Notes under the pieces: model-generated
Databases searched by the model: none
What the model saw: the letters and a program-made list of their open reading frames with translations, nothing else
Told to the model about the DNA's origin: nothing
Shown: positions 1-5,008 of the stretch, in pieces
How positions within the stretch are numbered: the stretch's first letter is position 1
How the letters are laid out: every line of letters starts with the position of its first letter
DNA from: a virus
Direction: 5' to 3' (one strand)
DNA: 5,008 bases
Virus record (IMG/VR): IMGVR_UViG_3300045988_167509
Span: 1-5,008 of that record
Translations under genes and position numbers: made by a program

Positions 1-63
1 AACGAACATAGGGGCGAAAATTCCGGAAATGTCATTTACAACAGACAAAGGGCTCACCTCCAT
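1..63 (-). CDS. Partial duplicate copy (N-terminal 21 codons) of the VP2-like gene, present because of the terminal redundancy
   Basis: The minus-strand ATG at 63..61 is the same ATG as 4972..4970 (MEVSPLSVVNDISGIF...). The ORF runs off the window start. This is an assembly/linearisation artefact, not a second gene. Confidence 0.5.
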   Translation of the reverse strand, partial: MEVSPLSVVNDISGIFAPMFV

Positions 64-99
64 CAGAGATAAAAAAAGTGCAATAACGTAAAAAAAAAT
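1..99. repeat. Terminal redundancy of the linearised circular genome; identical to 4910..5008
   Basis: I compared 1..99 with 4910..5008 base by base and they are identical. This gives a circular unit of 4909 nt. The anchor 'cat' at 61..63 matches 4970..4972. Whether the identity extends beyond the window ends cannot be seen. Confidence 0.9.
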
Positions 100-111
100 A
101 GGAAAGCACAT

Positions 112-161
112 TCAAAAACTCCGAACGGAGCTTAATACCGCAAATGCGGCGCTCCGTCCGG
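112..161 (-). terminator. Putative rho-independent terminator downstream of VP1
   Basis: On the minus strand, 161..121 forms a GC-rich stem (121-131 ccgaacggagc pairs with 151-161 gctccgtccgg, 10 of 11 bp). It carries an internal mini-hairpin, ccgc-aaat-gcgg at 138..149. It is immediately followed, at 120..112, by AGTTTTTGAA and further T-runs (CCTATTTTTTTTTACG). It lies 15 nt after the VP1 stop at 176..178. A second 6-bp GC stem, 165-170 ggccgg / 182-187 ccggcc, straddles the VP1 stop. Confidence 0.45.
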
Positions 162-175
162 AATGGCCGGCGAAA

Positions 176-1879
176 TCACATCCGGCCAAGGTGAGCCGGA
201 ATAGAATACATAGGCATAGGACGAGTATGCAGAACGTCAAAAGCGAAATCACCGAAAATCTGATTGGAAACAGAGGAAGAAACAGTAAGAACACGATCAA
301 CATTTGCAACATCCTCTCTAATCCAAGAATCAGAAAGAACAGGAGGGGAAGAATAATTGTCCGCAAGCGTCCAAGTGAAAAGGGAATTCTTCACATTCGG
401 GCGAAGCTCGCCAGAGACGCGCGAAGGTTTGTATCTATAATCAGACCAAGCTTCCTGATAAGCGAACACATCACCAACCGGATTATCGTCCGAATAAAAG
501 ATTTCGTCACGGTAAACGGGTTGCTCTCCAATCGAACTAAACACGGGAAGAAAGAAATCAAAAACAGAATCACGCATCCAAAAACGTTCAAGACCCTGTG
601 CATAAGTGTGACGATAACGAACAACACCGAGACAGAAAAGAAAACCATGTTCAGTAAAAGACTTACGAACATCAAAATGAACATCAGCGGTGACAGAGTT
701 AGCGCCCAAATCACCAAGAAAATCATTCTCCGTCTGGGCAGTGTTAGCCACAGCCGAAACATTCAAACGAATGCGATTCCCTCCGAGATACTCGGGAATC
801 TGCAGACGGGCATCAGGCGAGATGACGCCAAAATGATTACGCAGAATTTCGGTATAGCGAGAACCGCCGCGCGCATTTCGCTCTAAATACTCCTGAGCGG
901 CGAAGGCATAACGAAGATCATTGACCGTGAAATTTGTTGCCGAAGAACCGGGAACATCAACTTTTAAATTGGATGGAAAAGCATAAACTTTACCTTCCGT
1001 AAGTTCGCCACTGTGCGAACCATAACGCCAAGAATAATCACCAGATTGACCGTCAATCTGAACGAAACCGGGCTGCTGCAAAGAACCAAAATTCGACCAA
1101 GAACCATCACTGTTATAGACCTTAGAGAAGAAACGCAAAGGAGAAGAACCGGGAGTAAAAGTCTGATCGTCGGCGGTAATTACAGGAAAAGAACCGCCAG
1201 AAAAAGAAGGAATAGGGATATTGACGGCCTGACCTTTCTGAGGGGAAGGAAGAGCAGAAGTGAAATAATCGTGAAGCTTCGAAGCCTTGAAAGGCTTACC
1301 GCCTAGCGGCACATCGACAAGATAATTAGAACCGTTTGAGCCGGTAAGGGAGGAATCACCAACATAAACATTAAGAGGGTCAGTCAAATTCTCGTCACGG
1401 AAAAACGTATTGCATATCAAAGAATAACCGCGGAAAGGAAGAGCAGACGGGGCTTTCTTCGTATCAGTAACCGATACACCAACGGGAATGCCCATATAGT
1501 CAGCAATAGTACCAGTCTGCCAACCGCCATCAGGCGGAATGAGCTTCGGCACAGAATAAGAAGTCGTGGGCGCCCAAGCACTCTGAGTATTTTCGCCTTG
1601 AAATTGCTGCCAATGCTCCCAAGTAAGACGGTTAGGAACAAAAAACCAATATGTATCAAAGAAAAGATCATCAAAGATCGGGGAATGAAGAGTCTGGAGA
1701 CGAACAAGCTTGCTCATGGTAATCTCCACGGAATCACCAGGCAAAATCTCATCTACATAAAGGGGAACAACGTCACCAACGTTAAAAGACGTAGTATGAC
1801 GACTGGGACGCTTAAAAATCGAACGCTGAATATTAGCTGACGGAAGAATAGAGAAATGAGAAGAATCATTCCGAGACAT
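176..1879 (-). CDS. Major capsid protein VP1 (Microviridae F-like), 567 aa
   Basis: A 567 aa ORF. The N-terminus MSRNDSSHF...SFNVGDVVPLYVDEILPGDS and the block RYTEILRNHFGV resemble conserved gokushovirus VP1 blocks as I recall them. The start ATG at 1879..1877 is preceded by AAGGAGGT (1896..1889) with a 9-nt spacer. A Gly/Ser-rich central segment is consistent with the variable insertion loop of gokushovirus VP1. Confidence 0.95.
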   Translation of the reverse strand: MSRNDSSHFSILPSANIQRSIFKRPSRHTTSFNVGDVVPLYVDEILPGDSVEITMSKLVRLQTLHSPIFDDLFFDTYWFFVPNRLTWEHWQQFQGENTQSAWAPTTSYSVPKLIPPDGGWQTGTIADYMGIPVGVSVTDTKKAPSALPFRGYSLICNTFFRDENLTDPLNVYVGDSSLTGSNGSNYLVDVPLGGKPFKASKLHDYFTSALPSPQKGQAVNIPIPSFSGGSFPVITADDQTFTPGSSPLRFFSKVYNSDGSWSNFGSLQQPGFVQIDGQSGDYSWRYGSHSGELTEGKVYAFPSNLKVDVPGSSATNFTVNDLRYAFAAQEYLERNARGGSRYTEILRNHFGVISPDARLQIPEYLGGNRIRLNVSAVANTAQTENDFLGDLGANSVTADVHFDVRKSFTEHGFLFCLGVVRYRHTYAQGLERFWMRDSVFDFFLPVFSSIGEQPVYRDEIFYSDDNPVGDVFAYQEAWSDYRYKPSRVSGELRPNVKNSLFTWTLADNYSSPPVLSDSWIREDVANVDRVLTVSSSVSNQIFGDFAFDVLHTRPMPMYSIPAHLGRM

Positions 1880-1974
1880 TATTCATTAACCTCCTTCTGA
1901 GATTCAAGAAGCTCTTTGAGAAGATCAAAGAGAGACGGGAGAATTGCAAGCAGAAACTTTTTGAGAAATTCCAT
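1879..1974 (-). CDS. Unlisted 31 aa amphipathic peptide ORF (MEFLKKFLLAILPSLFDLLKELLESQKEVNE), translationally coupled to VP1
   Basis: The minus-strand ATG is at 1974..1972. It is preceded by GGAGGT, embedded in the C-terminal codons of the 148 aa ORF, with an 11-nt spacer. The stop TAA at 1881..1879 overlaps the VP1 ATG by 1 nt (TAATG). The peptide has a hydrophobic N-half and a charged C-half. It is below the ORF-track length cut-off. Confidence 0.35.
   Translation of the reverse strand: MEFLKKFLLAILPSLFDLLKELLESQKEVNE
1889..1896 (-). promoter_or_regulatory. Shine-Dalgarno AAGGAGGT for VP1
   Basis: Minus-strand AAGGAGGT lies 9 nt upstream of the VP1 ATG. It sits inside the last codons (QKEV) of the 31 aa upstream ORF. 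Confidence 0.8.
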
Positions 1975-1976
1975 AA

Positions 1977-2423
1977 TCAAGAATCACCTCCTTCCGGAGA
2001 AGAACCAACAGGGGGAGAGCCGACAGGGGGAGAATCAGAAACGGGTGCACCAGCAGAAACCCAATCCTTCAGAGAATTAAACTTCGAACGCAATTCGTGA
2101 GGAAGAAGGTCAAAAGCACGCGATGCCTCAATGCCGACATCAAGAAACTCTCGAAGATTACCGGGAATTTGCGAACCATCGCCAAAAACGGCGGGCGCTC
2201 GACAGAGCGCGGAAAAGTCACCATTCTCAAGCTTATTGAGAATCAATGAAAGATCACACTCATCAGCATGAGAATTAATCTCATCCTTGATGTTGACCTT
2301 AGCAAGCGGAAGCAACTCAAAAGAACCATTTGGAAGAAGATGCGGAGAAAAAACAGTGTGCTCAGAGTCACCGCAAGCGGAAAAGGGAGCAGAAGGCATG
2401 AGAGACGCAAAAGAATTTCTCAT
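1977..2423 (-). CDS. Hypothetical 148 aa protein immediately upstream of VP1; possibly an internal scaffolding (VP3-like) protein by size and position only
   Basis: The ATG at 2423..2421 is preceded by GGAGGT with a 9-nt spacer. The ORF-track TTG at 2429 is only 3 nt from the SD, so it is an unlikely start. The start overlaps the stop of the 74 aa ORF by 1 nt (TAATG). The C-terminus has a tandem SPPVGSPPVG repeat. I do not recognise sequence-level homology. Confidence 0.6.
   Translation of the reverse strand: MRNSFASLMPSAPFSACGDSEHTVFSPHLLPNGSFELLPLAKVNIKDEINSHADECDLSLILNKLENGDFSALCRAPAVFGDGSQIPGNLREFLDVGIEASRAFDLLPHELRSKFNSLKDWVSAGAPVSDSPPVGSPPVGSSPEGGDS
2007..2036 (-). repeat. Imperfect 15-nt tandem duplication encoding SPPVG-SPPVG at the C-terminus of the 148 aa ORF
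   Basis: Plus strand 2007-2021 aacagggggagagcc and 2022-2036 gacagggggagaatc match at 12 of 15 positions. Confidence 0.8.
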
Positions 2424-2647
2424 TAGCAAACAACCTCCGGCGGAATAACCGCCGTAACAGTGCCAGAATCCATATCCATATCAGCAACATGATAAAGGGA
2501 AAGATCAGCAACAGAAAGAGAAAGATCAGAATTGGTTTTGAGAAAAAACTGCCAATCACGAACAGCTTGTTCAACAGAAGGACAAGTGATAGGGTCAGCA
2601 AAACCAGTGCGAGCATCACGAACGGCAAAAACAGGACGAATAAACAT
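2423..2647 (-). CDS. Hypothetical 74 aa protein (MFIRPVFAVRDARTGFADPITCPSVEQ...)
   Basis: The ATG at 2647..2645 is preceded by GGAGGT with a 9-nt spacer, the same 12-mer leader (GGAGGTTGTTT) as the 148 aa ORF. Its start overlaps the TGA of the upstream 53 aa ORF (TGATG). Its stop TAA overlaps the next ATG. Confidence 0.5.
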   Translation of the reverse strand: MFIRPVFAVRDARTGFADPITCPSVEQAVRDWQFFLKTNSDLSLSVADLSLYHVADMDMDSGTVTAVIPPEVVC

Positions 2648-2808
2648 CAAAAAACAACCTCCGTTTCAATTTCATCATCAAGAACAAAAACAACATCATC
2701 ATCAGGGAAAAAACGACGAAGAGAACGCCCTAGCTGATTTCGCTCTGGCACATTAGAGAAAGAAGCAGAGAAGAAAAGGAAATCCCCAACACGAACAAAA
2801 CAAGTCAT
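2647..2808 (-). CDS. Hypothetical 53 aa protein (MTCFVRVGDFLFFSASFSNVPERNQLGRSLRRFFPDDDVVFVLDDEIETEVVF), not in the ORF track
   Basis: I translated the minus strand by hand. The ATG is at 2808..2806, with GAGGAG 5 nt upstream. The start overlaps the TAA of the 68 aa ORF by 1 nt. The stop TGA at 2649..2647 overlaps the ATG of the 74 aa ORF. The region is 162 nt, 53 codons plus stop. Confidence 0.4.
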   Translation of the reverse strand: MTCFVRVGDFLFFSASFSNVPERNQLGRSLRRFFPDDDVVFVLDDEIETEVVF

Positions 2809-3014
2809 TAAATCTCCTCACAAAAAACAAAAAAATGAGAAGTGTTCATAAAATCACCACACCGAGCAGAAGAAGAAGAAAGAAAATCGACAAAACAAGA
2901 AACTGCATAAATCTCAGAACAAGAAGCAAAAGGAGAAAGACAACGTACAACATCTTCCTTGCAAGAGCAGCGATCATAAACAGAACTGTCTTTGCGACGA
3001 ACAAGAACAACCAT
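2808..3014 (-). CDS. Hypothetical Cys-rich 68 aa protein (7 Cys; MVVLVRRKDSSVYDRCSCKEDVVRCLSPFASCSEIYAVSCF...)
   Basis: This is the minus-strand ORF from the track, trimmed to the ATG at 3014..3012. It has a weak SD (AAAGG) 9 nt upstream. Its stop is coupled (TAATG) to the 53 aa ORF. It is in the same frame as, and 15 nt downstream of, the Arg-rich ORF stop. Confidence 0.4.
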   Translation of the reverse strand: MVVLVRRKDSSVYDRCSCKEDVVRCLSPFASCSEIYAVSCFVDFLSSSSARCGDFMNTSHFFVFCEEI

Positions 3015-3029
3015 TTTCAAAAGCCTTTC

Positions 3030-3146
3030 TCAAAGGCGAATACCGCCTCGATAGTTAACAACGCCAAGGTTAACGTCCTTAGTGCGCGAAGCAGTGCGAG
3101 CAAAGAAACGACGATCAGAACGGCGACGAACACGAAATCGATTGAT
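3030..3146 (-). CDS. Candidate small basic DNA-binding protein (J / ORF8-like): 38 codons, 11 Arg plus 1 Lys, no canonical start codon
   Basis: The minus-strand frame INRFRVRRRSDRRFFARTASRTKDVNLGVVNYRGGIRL* is open from the TAG at 3194..3192 to the TGA at 3032..3030. The only plausible initiator is ATC at 3146..3144, 6 nt after the GGAGGT that overlaps the Rep stop (TAGGAGGTG). The size and charge resemble microvirus J/ORF8 packaging proteins. There is no in-frame ATG, GTG or TTG. Confidence 0.3.
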   Translation of the reverse strand: MNRFRVRRRSDRRFFARTASRTKDVNLGVVNYRGGIRL

Positions 3147-3157
3147 AAAAACACCTC

Positions 3158-4111
3158 CTAAATTTTGTTCTTCTTCAGACGAGAAAGAGCACTATTTTGT
3201 GAAGCTTCTTTCACCTCCAGATAATCAGTTAAACCAAGATCAGTGTACTGCAATTCAAGAAGCTGCCTATCATCAGCAAAACGCTTCCTTGACTTGACAA
3301 TACTTTTATACCACTCGTCACCGAAGATGTCAATACCTTTCTTCAAAAGAAATTTAGGTGTAGTACACTTTCCTCTATGCTCATCGCCGAGGAAATGAAA
3401 ATAGTCATCCTTTGCATCAGGATGATCTTGCCAAAAATAACCAGCAAGACCGGGCCGACGCGACATAGTGGCAAATTCGGGCTCAATATTATGTTCAGCA
3501 TAAAAAATAGCATTTTTTCCAGTCTGCTTTTTCAAGCAATAACGGGCAACATAAGCACAAGTACGCCACGAAACATTAGCAAGAGAACACTGACCTTTTT
3601 TCCAAAGTCTATCAGACAAAAGAGCAGAAACAAAAACAGGATCACCAAGCTCATTTTTGAAAAGCAAACGAGCATCAGAAAAGTCGGAAAGCGAAAGACC
3701 AAAGACAATCAAATGATAATGCGGCCGAGCAGTTTTGTCGCCGTACTCACCAGCACAAAAAAAACGAATCTCTTTATCTTGAAAATAGAAGCGCAAGCGC
3801 TTTAGAAAGAGCTGAGCATCACGTTTATCAAGAGAAAATATAGGGGTATCGTTTTCAGTAATCAAGCCAATAGGCACATTCTCGGGCGAATACGTAAGCG
3901 TAAGAAAAACGGCAGTCTTTGAATGATCAAGCTCCATCATCATTCGATCAGCCCACTGGCGGGAACGATCGAGACGGCAGCCAATGCACTGTCCACAAGG
4001 AATAGAAACCTCAGTAAGATCAAGACGTTCACCAGTAGCACGACCGGGAAGAATCTTAATCTTCTTTTCAATTGGGTCATAAACTCCAACCATAGGCTTA
4101 TAGCAAGACAA
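3158..4111 (-). CDS. Rolling-circle replication initiation protein (VP4/Rep, phiX174 gpA-like), 317 aa
   Basis: It carries the motifs FLTLTY (motif 1), PHYHLIVF (HUH, motif 2) and YVARYCLKK (motif 3, Y..K). An N-terminal Cys cluster, CGQCIGCRLDRSRQW, is as I recall typical of gokushovirus VP4. The start is TTG at 4111..4109 with AAAGGAGG 7-8 nt upstream. The first in-frame ATG, at 4093, is 26 nt from the SD. Confidence 0.93.
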   Translation of the reverse strand: MSCYKPMVGVYDPIEKKIKILPGRATGERLDLTEVSIPCGQCIGCRLDRSRQWADRMMMELDHSKTAVFLTLTYSPENVPIGLITENDTPIFSLDKRDAQLFLKRLRFYFQDKEIRFFCAGEYGDKTARPHYHLIVFGLSLSDFSDARLLFKNELGDPVFVSALLSDRLWKKGQCSLANVSWRTCAYVARYCLKKQTGKNAIFYAEHNIEPEFATMSRRPGLAGYFWQDHPDAKDDYFHFLGDEHRGKCTTPKFLLKKGIDIFGDEWYKSIVKSRKRFADDRQLLELQYTDLGLTDYLEVKEASQNSALSRLKKNKI

Positions 4112-4119
4112 AGTTTTTT

Positions 4120-4127
4120 CCTCCTTT
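4120..4127 (-). promoter_or_regulatory. Shine-Dalgarno AAAGGAGG for Rep (serving the TTG start)
   Basis: On the minus strand, GGAAAGGAGGAAAAAACTTTG reads directly into the Rep ORF. Confidence 0.75.
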
Positions 4128-4132
4128 CCTGT

Positions 4133-4172
4133 CAGTCAGCACAGTTACATCAAGTAGAACATGTGCTGACTG
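4133..4172. promoter_or_regulatory. Perfect 10-bp inverted repeat (cagtcagcac / gtgctgactg) with a 20-nt spacer in the Rep leader
   Basis: 4133-4142 is the exact reverse complement of 4163-4172. It lies 22-60 nt upstream of the Rep start. It could be an operator, an RNA hairpin or an origin element. Confidence 0.6.
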
Positions 4173-4174
4173 CA

Positions 4175-4219
4175 TCCATTGGCTATGCAAAACGCTATCG
4201 CGTTTAACACAGCCAATGG
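4175..4219. promoter_or_regulatory. 9-bp inverted repeat (tccattggc / gccaatgga) enclosing copy 1 of the 32-bp direct repeat, with a nested 6-bp hairpin
   Basis: 4175-4183 tccattggc is the reverse complement of 4211-4219 gccaatgga. Inside it, aaacgc-tatc-gcgttt forms a perfect 6-bp stem with a 4-nt loop. Confidence 0.6.
4182..4213. repeat. 32-bp perfect direct repeat, copy 1 (gctatgcaaaacgctatcgcgtttaacacagc)
   Basis: It is identical to 4229..4260. Each copy contains the palindrome aaacgcTATCgcgttt. Confidence 0.9.
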
Positions 4220-4228
4220 AGAAAAAAC

Positions 4229-4260
4229 GCTATGCAAAACGCTATCGCGTTTAACACAGC
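4229..4260. repeat. 32-bp perfect direct repeat, copy 2
   Basis: It is identical to 4182..4213. Copy starts are 47 bp apart. Confidence 0.9.
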
Positions 4261-4303
4261 GTTTTATAACTACTAGAGACTCGAAATCACTTCTTTCTAT
4301 CTA

Positions 4304-4972
4304 CTAATTAAGGACAGAATCAAGCGCTTGAAGACCTGCTTTCGCGCCGTAATAAACAGAAGCTGAAAGCTGAAAATTTTTGGTTGCTGCCATAGTGGCA
4401 GCACTGGCAAGAGCTGCGGCAGCAGACTGAATATTACCGTTATGAAGCAACGAACGAAAAGAAAAATCATTGCTCTTAACAGAAGAAGCGGAAGAGCCGT
4501 AACCACCGGAAGAGCCGTAACCAGAAAGACCGGCAGAAGCAGTAGAAGCGCCGCCAACGTTACCAAGGGCAAGAACAGGATTTAAACCAGCAGCTTTAAG
4601 ATCAGCAACACGACGCTGTATAGCGGTATTATCAAGCGCTTCTTGATAAGCAGTTGAAACACCAAGACCGTAATGTTTAGCAAGATCGGCGTTGAGATAA
4701 TCAACGGCAGGAGAGGAAACATTACCAGAAAAACCACTGCCGTTGGAAGGCTGAACGGACGGCGTTTTCTGCGAATCTGCAGAACTACCGAAAAAGAGCT
4801 CAAGAATACCGGGCGACTTCTGAGCATTCATCTGAGAAGCGCCACCAGGTGAAAAAGGCGCTAGAACGTAAGAGGCAATGGAAGAACCAACAGCAGAAGC
4901 AGAAGAAGGAACGAACATAGGGGCGAAAATTCCGGAAATGTCATTTACAACAGACAAAGGGCTCACCTCCAT
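4304..4972 (-). CDS. Minor capsid / DNA pilot protein (VP2-like), about 217-222 aa, Gly/Ser/Ala-rich
   Basis: This ORF follows VP1 on the coding strand. The segment AKHYGLGVSTAYQEALDNTAIQRRVADLKAAGLNPVLA resembles the conserved block of gokushovirus VP2 as I recall it. The start is ambiguous: the ATG at 4972 has no SD. An in-frame TTG at 4957..4955 sits 8 nt after GGAGGT. A further upstream ATG, equivalent to 111..109, would add a 16 aa hydrophobic extension. Confidence 0.75.
   Translation of the reverse strand: MEVSPLSVVNDISGIFAPMFVPSSASAVGSSIASYVLAPFSPGGASQMNAQKSPGILELFFGSSADSQKTPSVQPSNGSGFSGNVSSPAVDYLNADLAKHYGLGVSTAYQEALDNTAIQRRVADLKAAGLNPVLALGNVGGASTASAGLSGYGSSGGYGSSASSVKSNDFSFRSLLHNGNIQSAAAALASAATMAATKNFQLSASVYYGAKAGLQALDSVLN
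4490..4524 (-). repeat. Tandem 18-nt repeat (cggaagagccgtaacca x2) encoding the GYGSS-GGYGSS low-complexity segment in VP2
   Basis: 4490-4506 and 4508-4524 are identical 17-mers separated by 1 nt. Confidence 0.85.
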
Positions 4973-5008
4973 CAGAGATAAAAAAAGTGCAATAACGTAA
5001 AAAAAAAT
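4910..5008. repeat. Terminal redundancy, identical to 1..99
   Basis: Base-by-base identity with the window start. Confidence 0.9.

Follow-up and report, generated by a model that had tools for sequence, protein, structure and literature searches.

Three lineage-specific small genes in two variable slots of the overlapping gene chain of a gokushovirus-type microvirus

The window analysed here is the whole of a 5,008-nucleotide (nt) stretch, positions 1 to 5,008 of the IMG/VR virus record IMGVR_UViG_3300045988_167509, and the system in question is the chain of small open reading frames (ORFs) that runs on its minus strand from the gene for Rep (VP4) to the one encoding VP1, the major capsid protein. 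The first 99 nt of the window are identical to the last 99 nt, a terminal redundancy from which it follows that the genome is a circle of 4909 nt. The minus strand, of which T makes up 37%, is the coding strand and carries all genes, arranged in the order Rep(VP4)-VP8-[o68+o53]-VP5-VP3-[o31]-VP1-VP2, where o68, o53 and o31 denote ORFs of 68, 53 and 31 amino acids (aa). Judged by these genes, the virus is a gokushovirus-type microvirus, that is, a small single-stranded DNA phage. The core genes and their order are those already known from gokushoviruses, while three lineage-specific small ORFs, placed in two variable slots between VP8 and VP5 and between VP3 and VP1, are orphans that appear to be real genes. 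The explanation which accounts best for the whole, and which we consider probable, is that of a gokushovirus central block carried on one polycistronic mRNA, with reinitiation of translation at the gene overlaps and with orphan genes residing in the variable slots.

Gene content of the central block and its relatives

Relatives of the window were sought in IMG/VR, in metagenomes of the Joint Genome Institute (JGI) and in a collection of 5.8 billion proteins. The clade proved to be rare, comprising three full genomes (L001-L003) at 89-94% VP1 identity, two near-identical copies of the window (L049 and L050) and eight more lineages or fragments (L047, L048, L051, L057, L058/L059, L062, L063 and L064). 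In the protein collection, three clusters were found for o53, two for o68 and seven for VP5 (at an identity of at least 78%). The closest GenBank records are pig-faeces microviruses, which share approximately 66-68% nucleotide identity with the window across 33-40% of the genome, and a search with VP1 among 185,579 genomes gave no related prophage or host. The heavy reliance on Shine-Dalgarno boxes in this genome speaks against a host among the Bacteroidota.

The gene order, the strand and the core families Rep, VP8, VP5, VP3, VP1 and VP2 are shared with gut-type Gokushovirinae (in the Chp2 nomenclature), as exemplified by the pig-faeces microviruses MG945340 and MG945553, and the order VP4-VP5-VP3-VP1-VP2 has been published for gut gokushoviruses (PMC3394797). 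The VP2-type pilot protein was identified by profile search. In contrast to these shared traits, the VP1 protein of the window shares no more than 56-60% identity with its closest GenBank records, o68, o53 and o31 are without counterpart beyond one very small clade, and a gene stands between VP3 and VP1, two genes that overlap each other in 48 of the 55 other gokushoviruses surveyed. Small unassigned ORFs amid core genes are common in microviruses (PMC9239249). Neither NCBIfam nor PHROGs gave a match for the three orphans or for ORFs in alternative frames and antisense, which agrees with the original prediction that o68, o53 and o31 are lineage-specific and uncharacterised. Sequence searches of the PDB with VP3, VP8 and o31 returned nothing relevant, and Rfam yielded a single sub-threshold chance match.

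Two further ORFs of the chain were found to belong to canonical families (Table 1). The 74-aa product, which had been described as not recognisable, is VP5, with a profile match covering residues 6-74 of 74 and a second match to phrog_1670 at 2e-10, and its gene follows Rep/VP8 and precedes VP3, all on one strand. The ratio of nonsynonymous to synonymous differences per site (pN/pS), calculated throughout as a pooled Nei-Gojobori estimate and lying at 0.08-0.13 in the core genes used for reference, was 0.086 for VP5. In the literature, VP5 is equated with protein C of phiX174 (PMC3091885), and by this equivalence it may, like C, take part in switching to single-stranded DNA synthesis and in packaging. 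The 148-aa protein, VP3, falls by its sequence into the internal scaffold family of Chlamydia phage Chp2 (Chlamy_scaf) and is the counterpart of phiX174 B; its length agrees with the approximately 150 aa of such scaffolds, and just o31 stands between it and VP1. That the 148-aa ORF might instead be an analogue of phiX174 D was rejected, its sole Pfam match being the internal scaffold family, and the external scaffold D is without a gokushovirus equivalent (PMC3091885). Because the 74-aa and 148-aa products match the VP5 and scaffold families, half of the cassette is canonical gokushovirus core, and its earlier description as the least characterised part of the genome does not hold. The C-terminal tail of VP3 (1977-2060) is a low-complexity run of Pro, Ser, Ala and Gly encoded by short tandem DNA repeats, and it varies in length among close relatives (L001-L003, L047 and L057), in which VP3 measures 145-173 aa.

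The Arg-rich ORF upstream of o68 was likewise present as predicted, and its sequence identifies it as a VP8/J-like DNA-binding protein. With 11 Arg or Lys residues in 38 aa, it corresponds to the J/VP8 class of Arg/Lys-rich proteins of 25-40 aa (PMC3091885). What the prediction did not anticipate is that this ORF has no ATG, GTG or TTG start in the window, although a canonical start codon is not a family-defining trait. The aligned start is ATC in the window, L051, L048, L057 and L047, CTG in L058, and TTG in L001, L003, L062, L063 and L064, and a GGAGG motif lies 7 nt upstream of it in the window and 5-8 nt upstream throughout the relatives. ORF finders miss VP8 because it lacks a canonical start codon, and gene callers omit it in every relative.

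Compared with phiX174, VP5 and VP8 are treated as the counterparts of C and J, whereas homologues of D, G, K and E are absent from this genome and the orphans are, by the tests made here, separate ORFs, not overprinted ones. The size series K/C/D, to which the ORFs of 53, 74 and 148 aa had loosely been likened, consequently survives for C only, by way of the literature on VP5; D gives way to the internal scaffold, and nothing links o53 to K. A K-like identity for o53 was rejected in view of the lack of any Pfam, PHROG or NCBIfam match, its position as a separate ORF, unlike K with its overprinting on the A/C region, and its predicted soluble alpha/beta character.

Table 1. Genes and Shine-Dalgarno boxes of the chain in the window.
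Feature	Position	Strand	Evidence or remark
Rep/VP4, upstream flank of the chain	3158..4111	-	PF23343; phrog_942 at 2e-96
VP8 box GGAGGT, overlaps the Rep stop codon	3153..3158	-	Sequence and relatives
VP8/J-like Arg-rich DNA-binding protein, 38 aa, near-cognate ATC start	3030..3146	-	phrog_10695 full length, E=8e-8
o68, fast-evolving lineage-specific accessory ORF (very probably a gene), 68 aa	2808..3014	-	pN/pS 0.66 (5 lineages)
o53 box GAGGAG, in the last o68 codons	2814..2819	-	Relatives retain GAGG only
o53, acidic lineage-specific protein, 53 aa	2647..2808	-	pN/pS 0.085 (8 lineages)
VP5 box GGAGGT, in o53 codons T-E-V-V	2657..2662	-	Sequence and relatives
VP5 (Phage_ORF5, phiX174 C counterpart), 74 aa	2423..2647	-	PF20577, 46 bits (cut-off 27)
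VP3 box GGAGGT, in VP5 codons P-E-V-V	2433..2438	-	Sequence and relatives
VP3 internal scaffolding protein, 148 aa	1977..2423	-	PF09675, 68.2 bits (cut-off 25); phrog_1642 at 1e-17
o31 box AGGAGGTGA, the genome's longest Shine-Dalgarno match, within the final VP3 codons E-G-G-D-S	1984..1992	-	
o31, amphipathic-helix peptide gene, 31 aa (ATG 1974, span 1974..1879) or 33 aa (TTG 1980)	1879..1980	-	
VP1 box GGAGGT, in the last o31 codons	1889..1894	-	Sequence and relatives
VP1 major capsid protein, downstream end of the chain	176..1879	-	PF02305 at 2e-137

Junctions and the reading of the chain

The chain of ORFs, with its coordinates and the positions of its junctions, was recovered in the window sequence exactly as predicted. 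Stop and start codons overlap as TAATG at 2810..2806, TGATG at 2649..2645, TAATG at 2425..2421 and TAATG at 1881..1877. Across the 12 lineages examined, these overlaps were kept by every relative carrying the given ORFs, so that the proposed check on relatives came out in favour of the frames and of their junctions. Exchanges of the start codon preserve the potential for initiation, VP5 beginning with GTG in L048, o31 with TTG in L001 and L062, and VP8 with ATC, CTG or TTG.

The Shine-Dalgarno boxes described earlier were also found in place, with GGAGGT lying 9, 9, 11 and 9 nt ahead of the ATG codons of VP5, VP3, o31 and VP1, while o53 is preceded by GAGGAG at 5 nt and o68 has only AAAGG. The motif GGAGG occurs nine times on the coding strand, compared to 2.3 +/- 1.5 times in shuffled sequences, and six of the nine copies stand 7-11 nt ahead of a proposed start. 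At the o31 box, all relatives carrying o31 retain GGAGGTGA, the leading A being absent in two of them. The repeated 12-mer AAACAACCTCCG lies at 2428..2439 and 2652..2663, as the original prediction had it, and belongs to a 19-nt repeat whose copies are 84% identical (repeat family D14). The shared E-V-V and E-G-G-D-S endings arise because the boxes are embedded in coding sequence; in this respect the prediction was right, but the E-V-V it gave as the end of two proteins is not terminal, the true C-termini being E-V-V-F and E-V-V-C.

From this arrangement we infer that a single polycistronic mRNA would carry the genes from Rep to VP1, that ribosomes, on completing an ORF, would re-initiate on the next, and that the Shine-Dalgarno boxes would also permit fresh initiation, the relative amounts of the proteins thus being set locally. 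Each downstream start either shares a base with the preceding stop (TAATG, TGATG or TTGA) or lies within 15 nt of it. As in coupled operons, the ORFs overlap or closely abut on the same strand, and their junctions are conserved despite sequence divergence. Weak boxes or near-cognate codons mark the starts of VP8 (ATC or CTG), of the ORF in the VP8-VP5 slot of L064 (ATC) and of o68 (AAAGG), and these starts sit at or just past the upstream stop; in L002, L003 and L047, from which o68 was deleted wholly or in part, the o53 start was found attached again to the stop before it. Such a pattern of starts and stops is what termination-reinitiation coupling predicts, and to that extent it suggests coupling. 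The same kind of stop/start overlap is known from the C-D-J junctions of phiX174, where nucleotide 848 is common to D and J and the overlap between C and D amounts to 4 nt.

The alternative that survives best, itself rather unlikely in our estimate, is that the overlaps and embedded boxes reflect nothing but genome compaction, every ORF being initiated independently. It draws on the strong and well-spaced GGAGG boxes ahead of VP8, VP5, VP3, o31 and VP1, and on genomes in which an unrelated ORF of the VP8-VP5 slot (type B, described below) stops 10-14 nt short of the VP5 ATG without overlap and VP5 is still present. Folding of the RNA at the junctions revealed no structure that would sequester the downstream boxes (z -1.8 to +1.9), and strong boxes could support independent initiation. 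This result weighs against the polycistronic, reinitiating block that we prefer, as do scans for consensus promoters and terminators, which remained at background level. What counts against independent initiation is that none of the weak-box or near-cognate starts (o68, VP8 and the slot ORF of L064) is found away from an upstream stop, and that o53 returned to a stop codon following the loss of o68. A terminator-like hairpin at 2454..2438, beside the VP3 Shine-Dalgarno box, is not conserved in the relatives.

Small genes in the two variable slots

The slot between VP8 and VP5 differs in content from one relative to another. Some carry o68 together with o53, as the window does, L003 and L047 carry o53 alone, and L002 has a truncated o68 next to o53, whereas in L001, L062, L063 and L064 the slot holds an unrelated family of ORFs of 61-73 aa, here called type B. 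Homology among o68, o53 and type B was considered and rejected, with hhalign probabilities of 0.8-15%. Trees of the flanking Rep and VP5-VP3 segments did not sort cleanly by cassette type, which argues that the slot has been exchanged among close relatives; o68 and o53 would sit in a recombination-prone position. Since unrelated type-B ORFs fill the slot in four relatives, o68 and o53 are read as putative dispensable genes for host interaction or competition, not as core genes. In L064, the type-B ORF (about 590-610) has ATC where its homologue in L062 (890) has ATG, downstream of the same Shine-Dalgarno box, which makes it the second apparent ATC start in the clade beside that of VP8.

Of the two orphans in this slot, o53 is a gene. 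Its variable columns are distributed 6/4/27 over the three codon positions, the off-frame pN/pS rises to 1.6-2.5, and the protein is identical in five of the eight lineages despite many synonymous differences, so that its constraint equals that of the capsid gene. The copy in the window is the most divergent known, differing from the protein common to the five lineages by S12F, A16S, A29S, S33F and E38D. A confident AlphaFold2 (AF2) model of o53, with a mean predicted local distance difference test score (pLDDT) of 81.8, shows a beta-beta-alpha-beta-beta layout, for which a fold search gave no significant match, and a profile search of 1.84 billion representatives returned only the cluster of o53 itself as true relatives. 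A 1106-aa HEAT-like repeat protein, which shares the 10-residue motif AFxxVPxxNQ in five repeats, was judged a spurious relative.

For o68 the evidence is more divided. The synonymous-site variation which the original prediction had proposed to look for among relatives was evident in o53 and o31, whereas o68, at a pN/pS of 0.66, showed no bias by codon position (28/20/27 variable columns; off-frame pN/pS 0.75-1.12). Given that this simple ratio was ambiguous, a permutation test was added in which the observed substitutions were put at random sites and the similarity of the resulting proteins was scored. In each of the four pairs of lineages the frame-0 protein of o68 was preserved far better than under random placement (z 2.5-4.7, P<=0.008), while seven of the eight comparisons in frames 1 and 2 showed no such effect, the exception being frame 1 of the pair L048-L058, which reached z 2.4. 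All four indels in o68 are multiples of 3. Six of six carriers retain the ATG as well as the stop/start overlap with o53. One of the indels, a 102-nt deletion in L002, leaves an ORF of 34 aa that still overlaps the o53 start. The best AF2 model, with a beta-beta-alpha-alpha-beta-beta arrangement, has a pLDDT of 89.8, and a fold search with it gave no match. Taken together, these results make o68 very probably a fast-evolving gene. The type-B ORFs behave similarly, with a pN/pS of 0.70 and frame-specific protein conservation at z 2.7-5.2.

It could be argued that o68, and with it the type-B family, encodes no functional protein and is an open stretch in a T-rich spacer which is at most passively translated. 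The even spread of variable sites over codon positions and the pN/pS of 0.66 are what such a spacer would show; a 68-codon open run has a probability of about 4.5% at this composition, the persistence of the open frame is just marginally unlikely by chance, the +1 frame of o68 is nearly open too, and the ORF is lost in L003 and L047 and half lost in L002. We nevertheless hold this view to be improbable, as the substitutions protect the frame-0 protein in every pair, the indels are without exception in frame, the start and the overlap with o53 persist in the six carriers, and the best model is a confident one.

At the second slot, between VP3 and VP1, o31 is a gene as well. Its pN/pS is 0.30 (variable columns 8/5/18 by codon position in seven lineages) compared to 1.8-4.4 off frame, and 22 of its 31 residues are invariant among five close relatives. 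Gene callers do call it. The start predicted 2 nt past the stop of the 148-aa ORF, ATG 1974, exists, but an invariant TTG at 1980 offers an alternative that would overlap the VP3 stop as TTGA; five of the lineages have ATG at codon 1974 and two have TTG, and either position may be the start. By its sequence o31 forms a single amphipathic helix whose polar face is narrow; a Pro stands at its centre, the tail is acidic and the net charge amounts to -2. A hydrophobic moment of 0.44 was obtained, compared to 0.19 in shuffled sequences (0.7% of the shuffles reached it), and the Kyte-Doolittle maximum over 19 residues is 1.37, below an assumed transmembrane cut-off of approximately 1.6, by which measure the peptide is insufficiently hydrophobic for a classical transmembrane helix.

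A short ORF in this position invites comparison with the lysis protein E of phiX174, representative of a type that lyses its host through inhibition of MraY. Like E, o31 is small, hydrophobic and encoded beside scaffold and capsid genes, and has a Leu-rich helix with an L-P-S-L motif; it differs in its net charge (-2, compared to +2 for E residues 1-35) and in not being overprinted. Homology to E was rejected, the local alignment scoring 29 compared to 22.5 +/- 3.9 in shuffles (P about 0.07), and so was assignment as an E-type lysis protein, the N-terminal transmembrane helix of that type being lacking (Kyte-Doolittle 1.37 compared to 2.79 for E).

Peptides of about 28 aa were observed at the same slot in MG945340 (L004, 2000-2103) and MG945181 (L052, 2010-2100), whose VP1 is about 60% identical to that of the window. 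These resemble o31 in position, in length and in their N-terminus (M-x-D-F-L), and, as in o31, the C-terminal K-E and the stop are dictated by the VP1 Shine-Dalgarno box. They differ in carrying a transmembrane-grade segment (…VAGVAAI…FKE, Kyte-Doolittle 2.4-2.6) where o31 is amphipathic, and homology is not demonstrable at such length. In L004, no canonical start for the peptide follows the VP3 stop; a CTG is located 5 nt past a GAGGT box. A tblastn search of phage records with o31 and the 28-aa peptide gave no match and missed even the source record, being unsuited to short low-complexity queries, and a metagenome scan with the o31 alignment, which shares this weakness, gave none either. A DNA-pattern scan of IMG/VR for the o31 core returned only three known relatives and one chance match inside a larger protein.

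In the explanation we prefer, o31 would be an amphipathic-helix peptide, translated at a high level, whose gene was inserted where VP3 and VP1 normally join tightly, and our best guess is a role as a membrane-active or capsid-assembly helper. To our knowledge, no lysis gene has been identified in gokushoviruses. A bolder proposal is that o31 and the 28-aa peptides represent a new class of tiny, highly expressed, membrane-active peptides serving lysis or superinfection exclusion, with the VP8-VP5 slot as a parallel case, an exchangeable cassette with anti-host or anti-competitor genes; we attach a low probability to it because sequence character and position are its only support.

A contrary possibility is that o31 has no function as a peptide and is a short leader ORF delivering ribosomes to the VP1 start. 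It does fill the place directly between the stop of VP3 and the start of VP1, with an overlap on either side, and L057, a close relative, does without it, the VP3 tail there extending to the VP1 Shine-Dalgarno box in place of o31. We give this little credence in view of the constraint on the o31 sequence described above, and of the gokushovirus majority in which VP1 starts directly at the VP3 stop, which implies that a leader is not needed. The idea that the real genes are instead overprinted hydrophobic ORFs in other frames, like E inside D in phiX174, is very hard to credit: such ORFs on the minus strand at 2628..2368 (86 aa, VP5/VP3), 3010..2846 (54 aa, o68) and 3154..3017 (45 aa, VP8) occur as open, hydrophobic frames in the window and several of its relatives, and no lysis gene is known in gokushoviruses, but their off-frame pN/pS is 1.6-7 where measured, VP5 shows no depression of synonymous divergence (dS 0.72) compared to VP1 and Rep, their starts vary among relatives with lengths of 40-86 aa, and they match no family. 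The third codon position is T in 54-72% of codons in all genes but o31 (41%), and T-rich third positions suppress stop codons in the +1 frame, which accounts for long hydrophobic off-frame ORFs. On the plus strand, no ORF had a family match better than E=0.03. Neither the off-frame pN/pS nor the family searches brought to light the better genes in other frames or on the other strand that would have overturned the original prediction.

The remaining points that count against a central block with orphan genes in variable slots concern the orphans themselves. The pN/pS of o68 comes without an excess at third positions, its frame would stay open by chance with a probability of roughly 0.06, and only two of its five AF2 models were confident. 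The absence of o68 from L003 and L047, and of o31 from L057, means that neither is essential. Finally, no homologue or fold match in the databases searched gave a function to o68, o53 or o31.

Other genome features and the significance of the slots

Outside the chain, several further features were observed. The VP2 ATG at 4972 (minus strand) has no Shine-Dalgarno box upstream, and a GGAGGTG at 4970-4964 falls within its first three codons; an in-frame TTG at 4957 lies 6-8 nt after this box, and the VP2 of L047 aligns from residue 6 only. The position of the box and this alignment suggest that the true VP2 start may be TTG 4957. Within VP2, a 17-nt tandem repeat, perfect and spaced at 18 nt (4489-4523), encodes a repeated GYGSSG motif in the pilot protein. 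The intergenic region between VP2 and Rep (4133-4260) contains a perfect 32-nt direct repeat (4182-4213 and 4229-4260) and an inverted repeat with 21-nt arms (4175-4195 and 4200-4220), and the Rep Shine-Dalgarno box has a stable hairpin immediately 5' of it (z = -3.1 compared to shuffles); this region is probably an origin or regulatory region. Past the VP1 stop at 176, at about 114-130 on the minus strand, a hairpin CTCCG-TT-CGGAG followed by TTTTT resembles an intrinsic terminator, and it went unlisted by the terminator scan because its loop is just 2 nt.

For annotation, the analysis removes a false mystery, as VP5 and VP3 account for two "unknown" ORFs and VP8 for the Arg-rich one, and it shows that the 31-aa and 53-aa ORFs and the ATC-start VP8 are real microvirus genes of a kind that default ORF finders or gene callers miss. 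For the biology of the group, it points to two small variable positions in an otherwise rigid genome of 4.9 kb, where lineage-specific genes are gained, swapped and lost between VP8 and VP5 and between VP3 and VP1 among genomes whose capsid proteins are about 90% identical. Both slots are natural places in which to seek candidate gokushovirus functions in lysis, exclusion and anti-defence. If the peptides of the VP3/VP1 slot do form a membrane-active class, they could supply this group with its missing lysis factor, or could serve superinfection exclusion.

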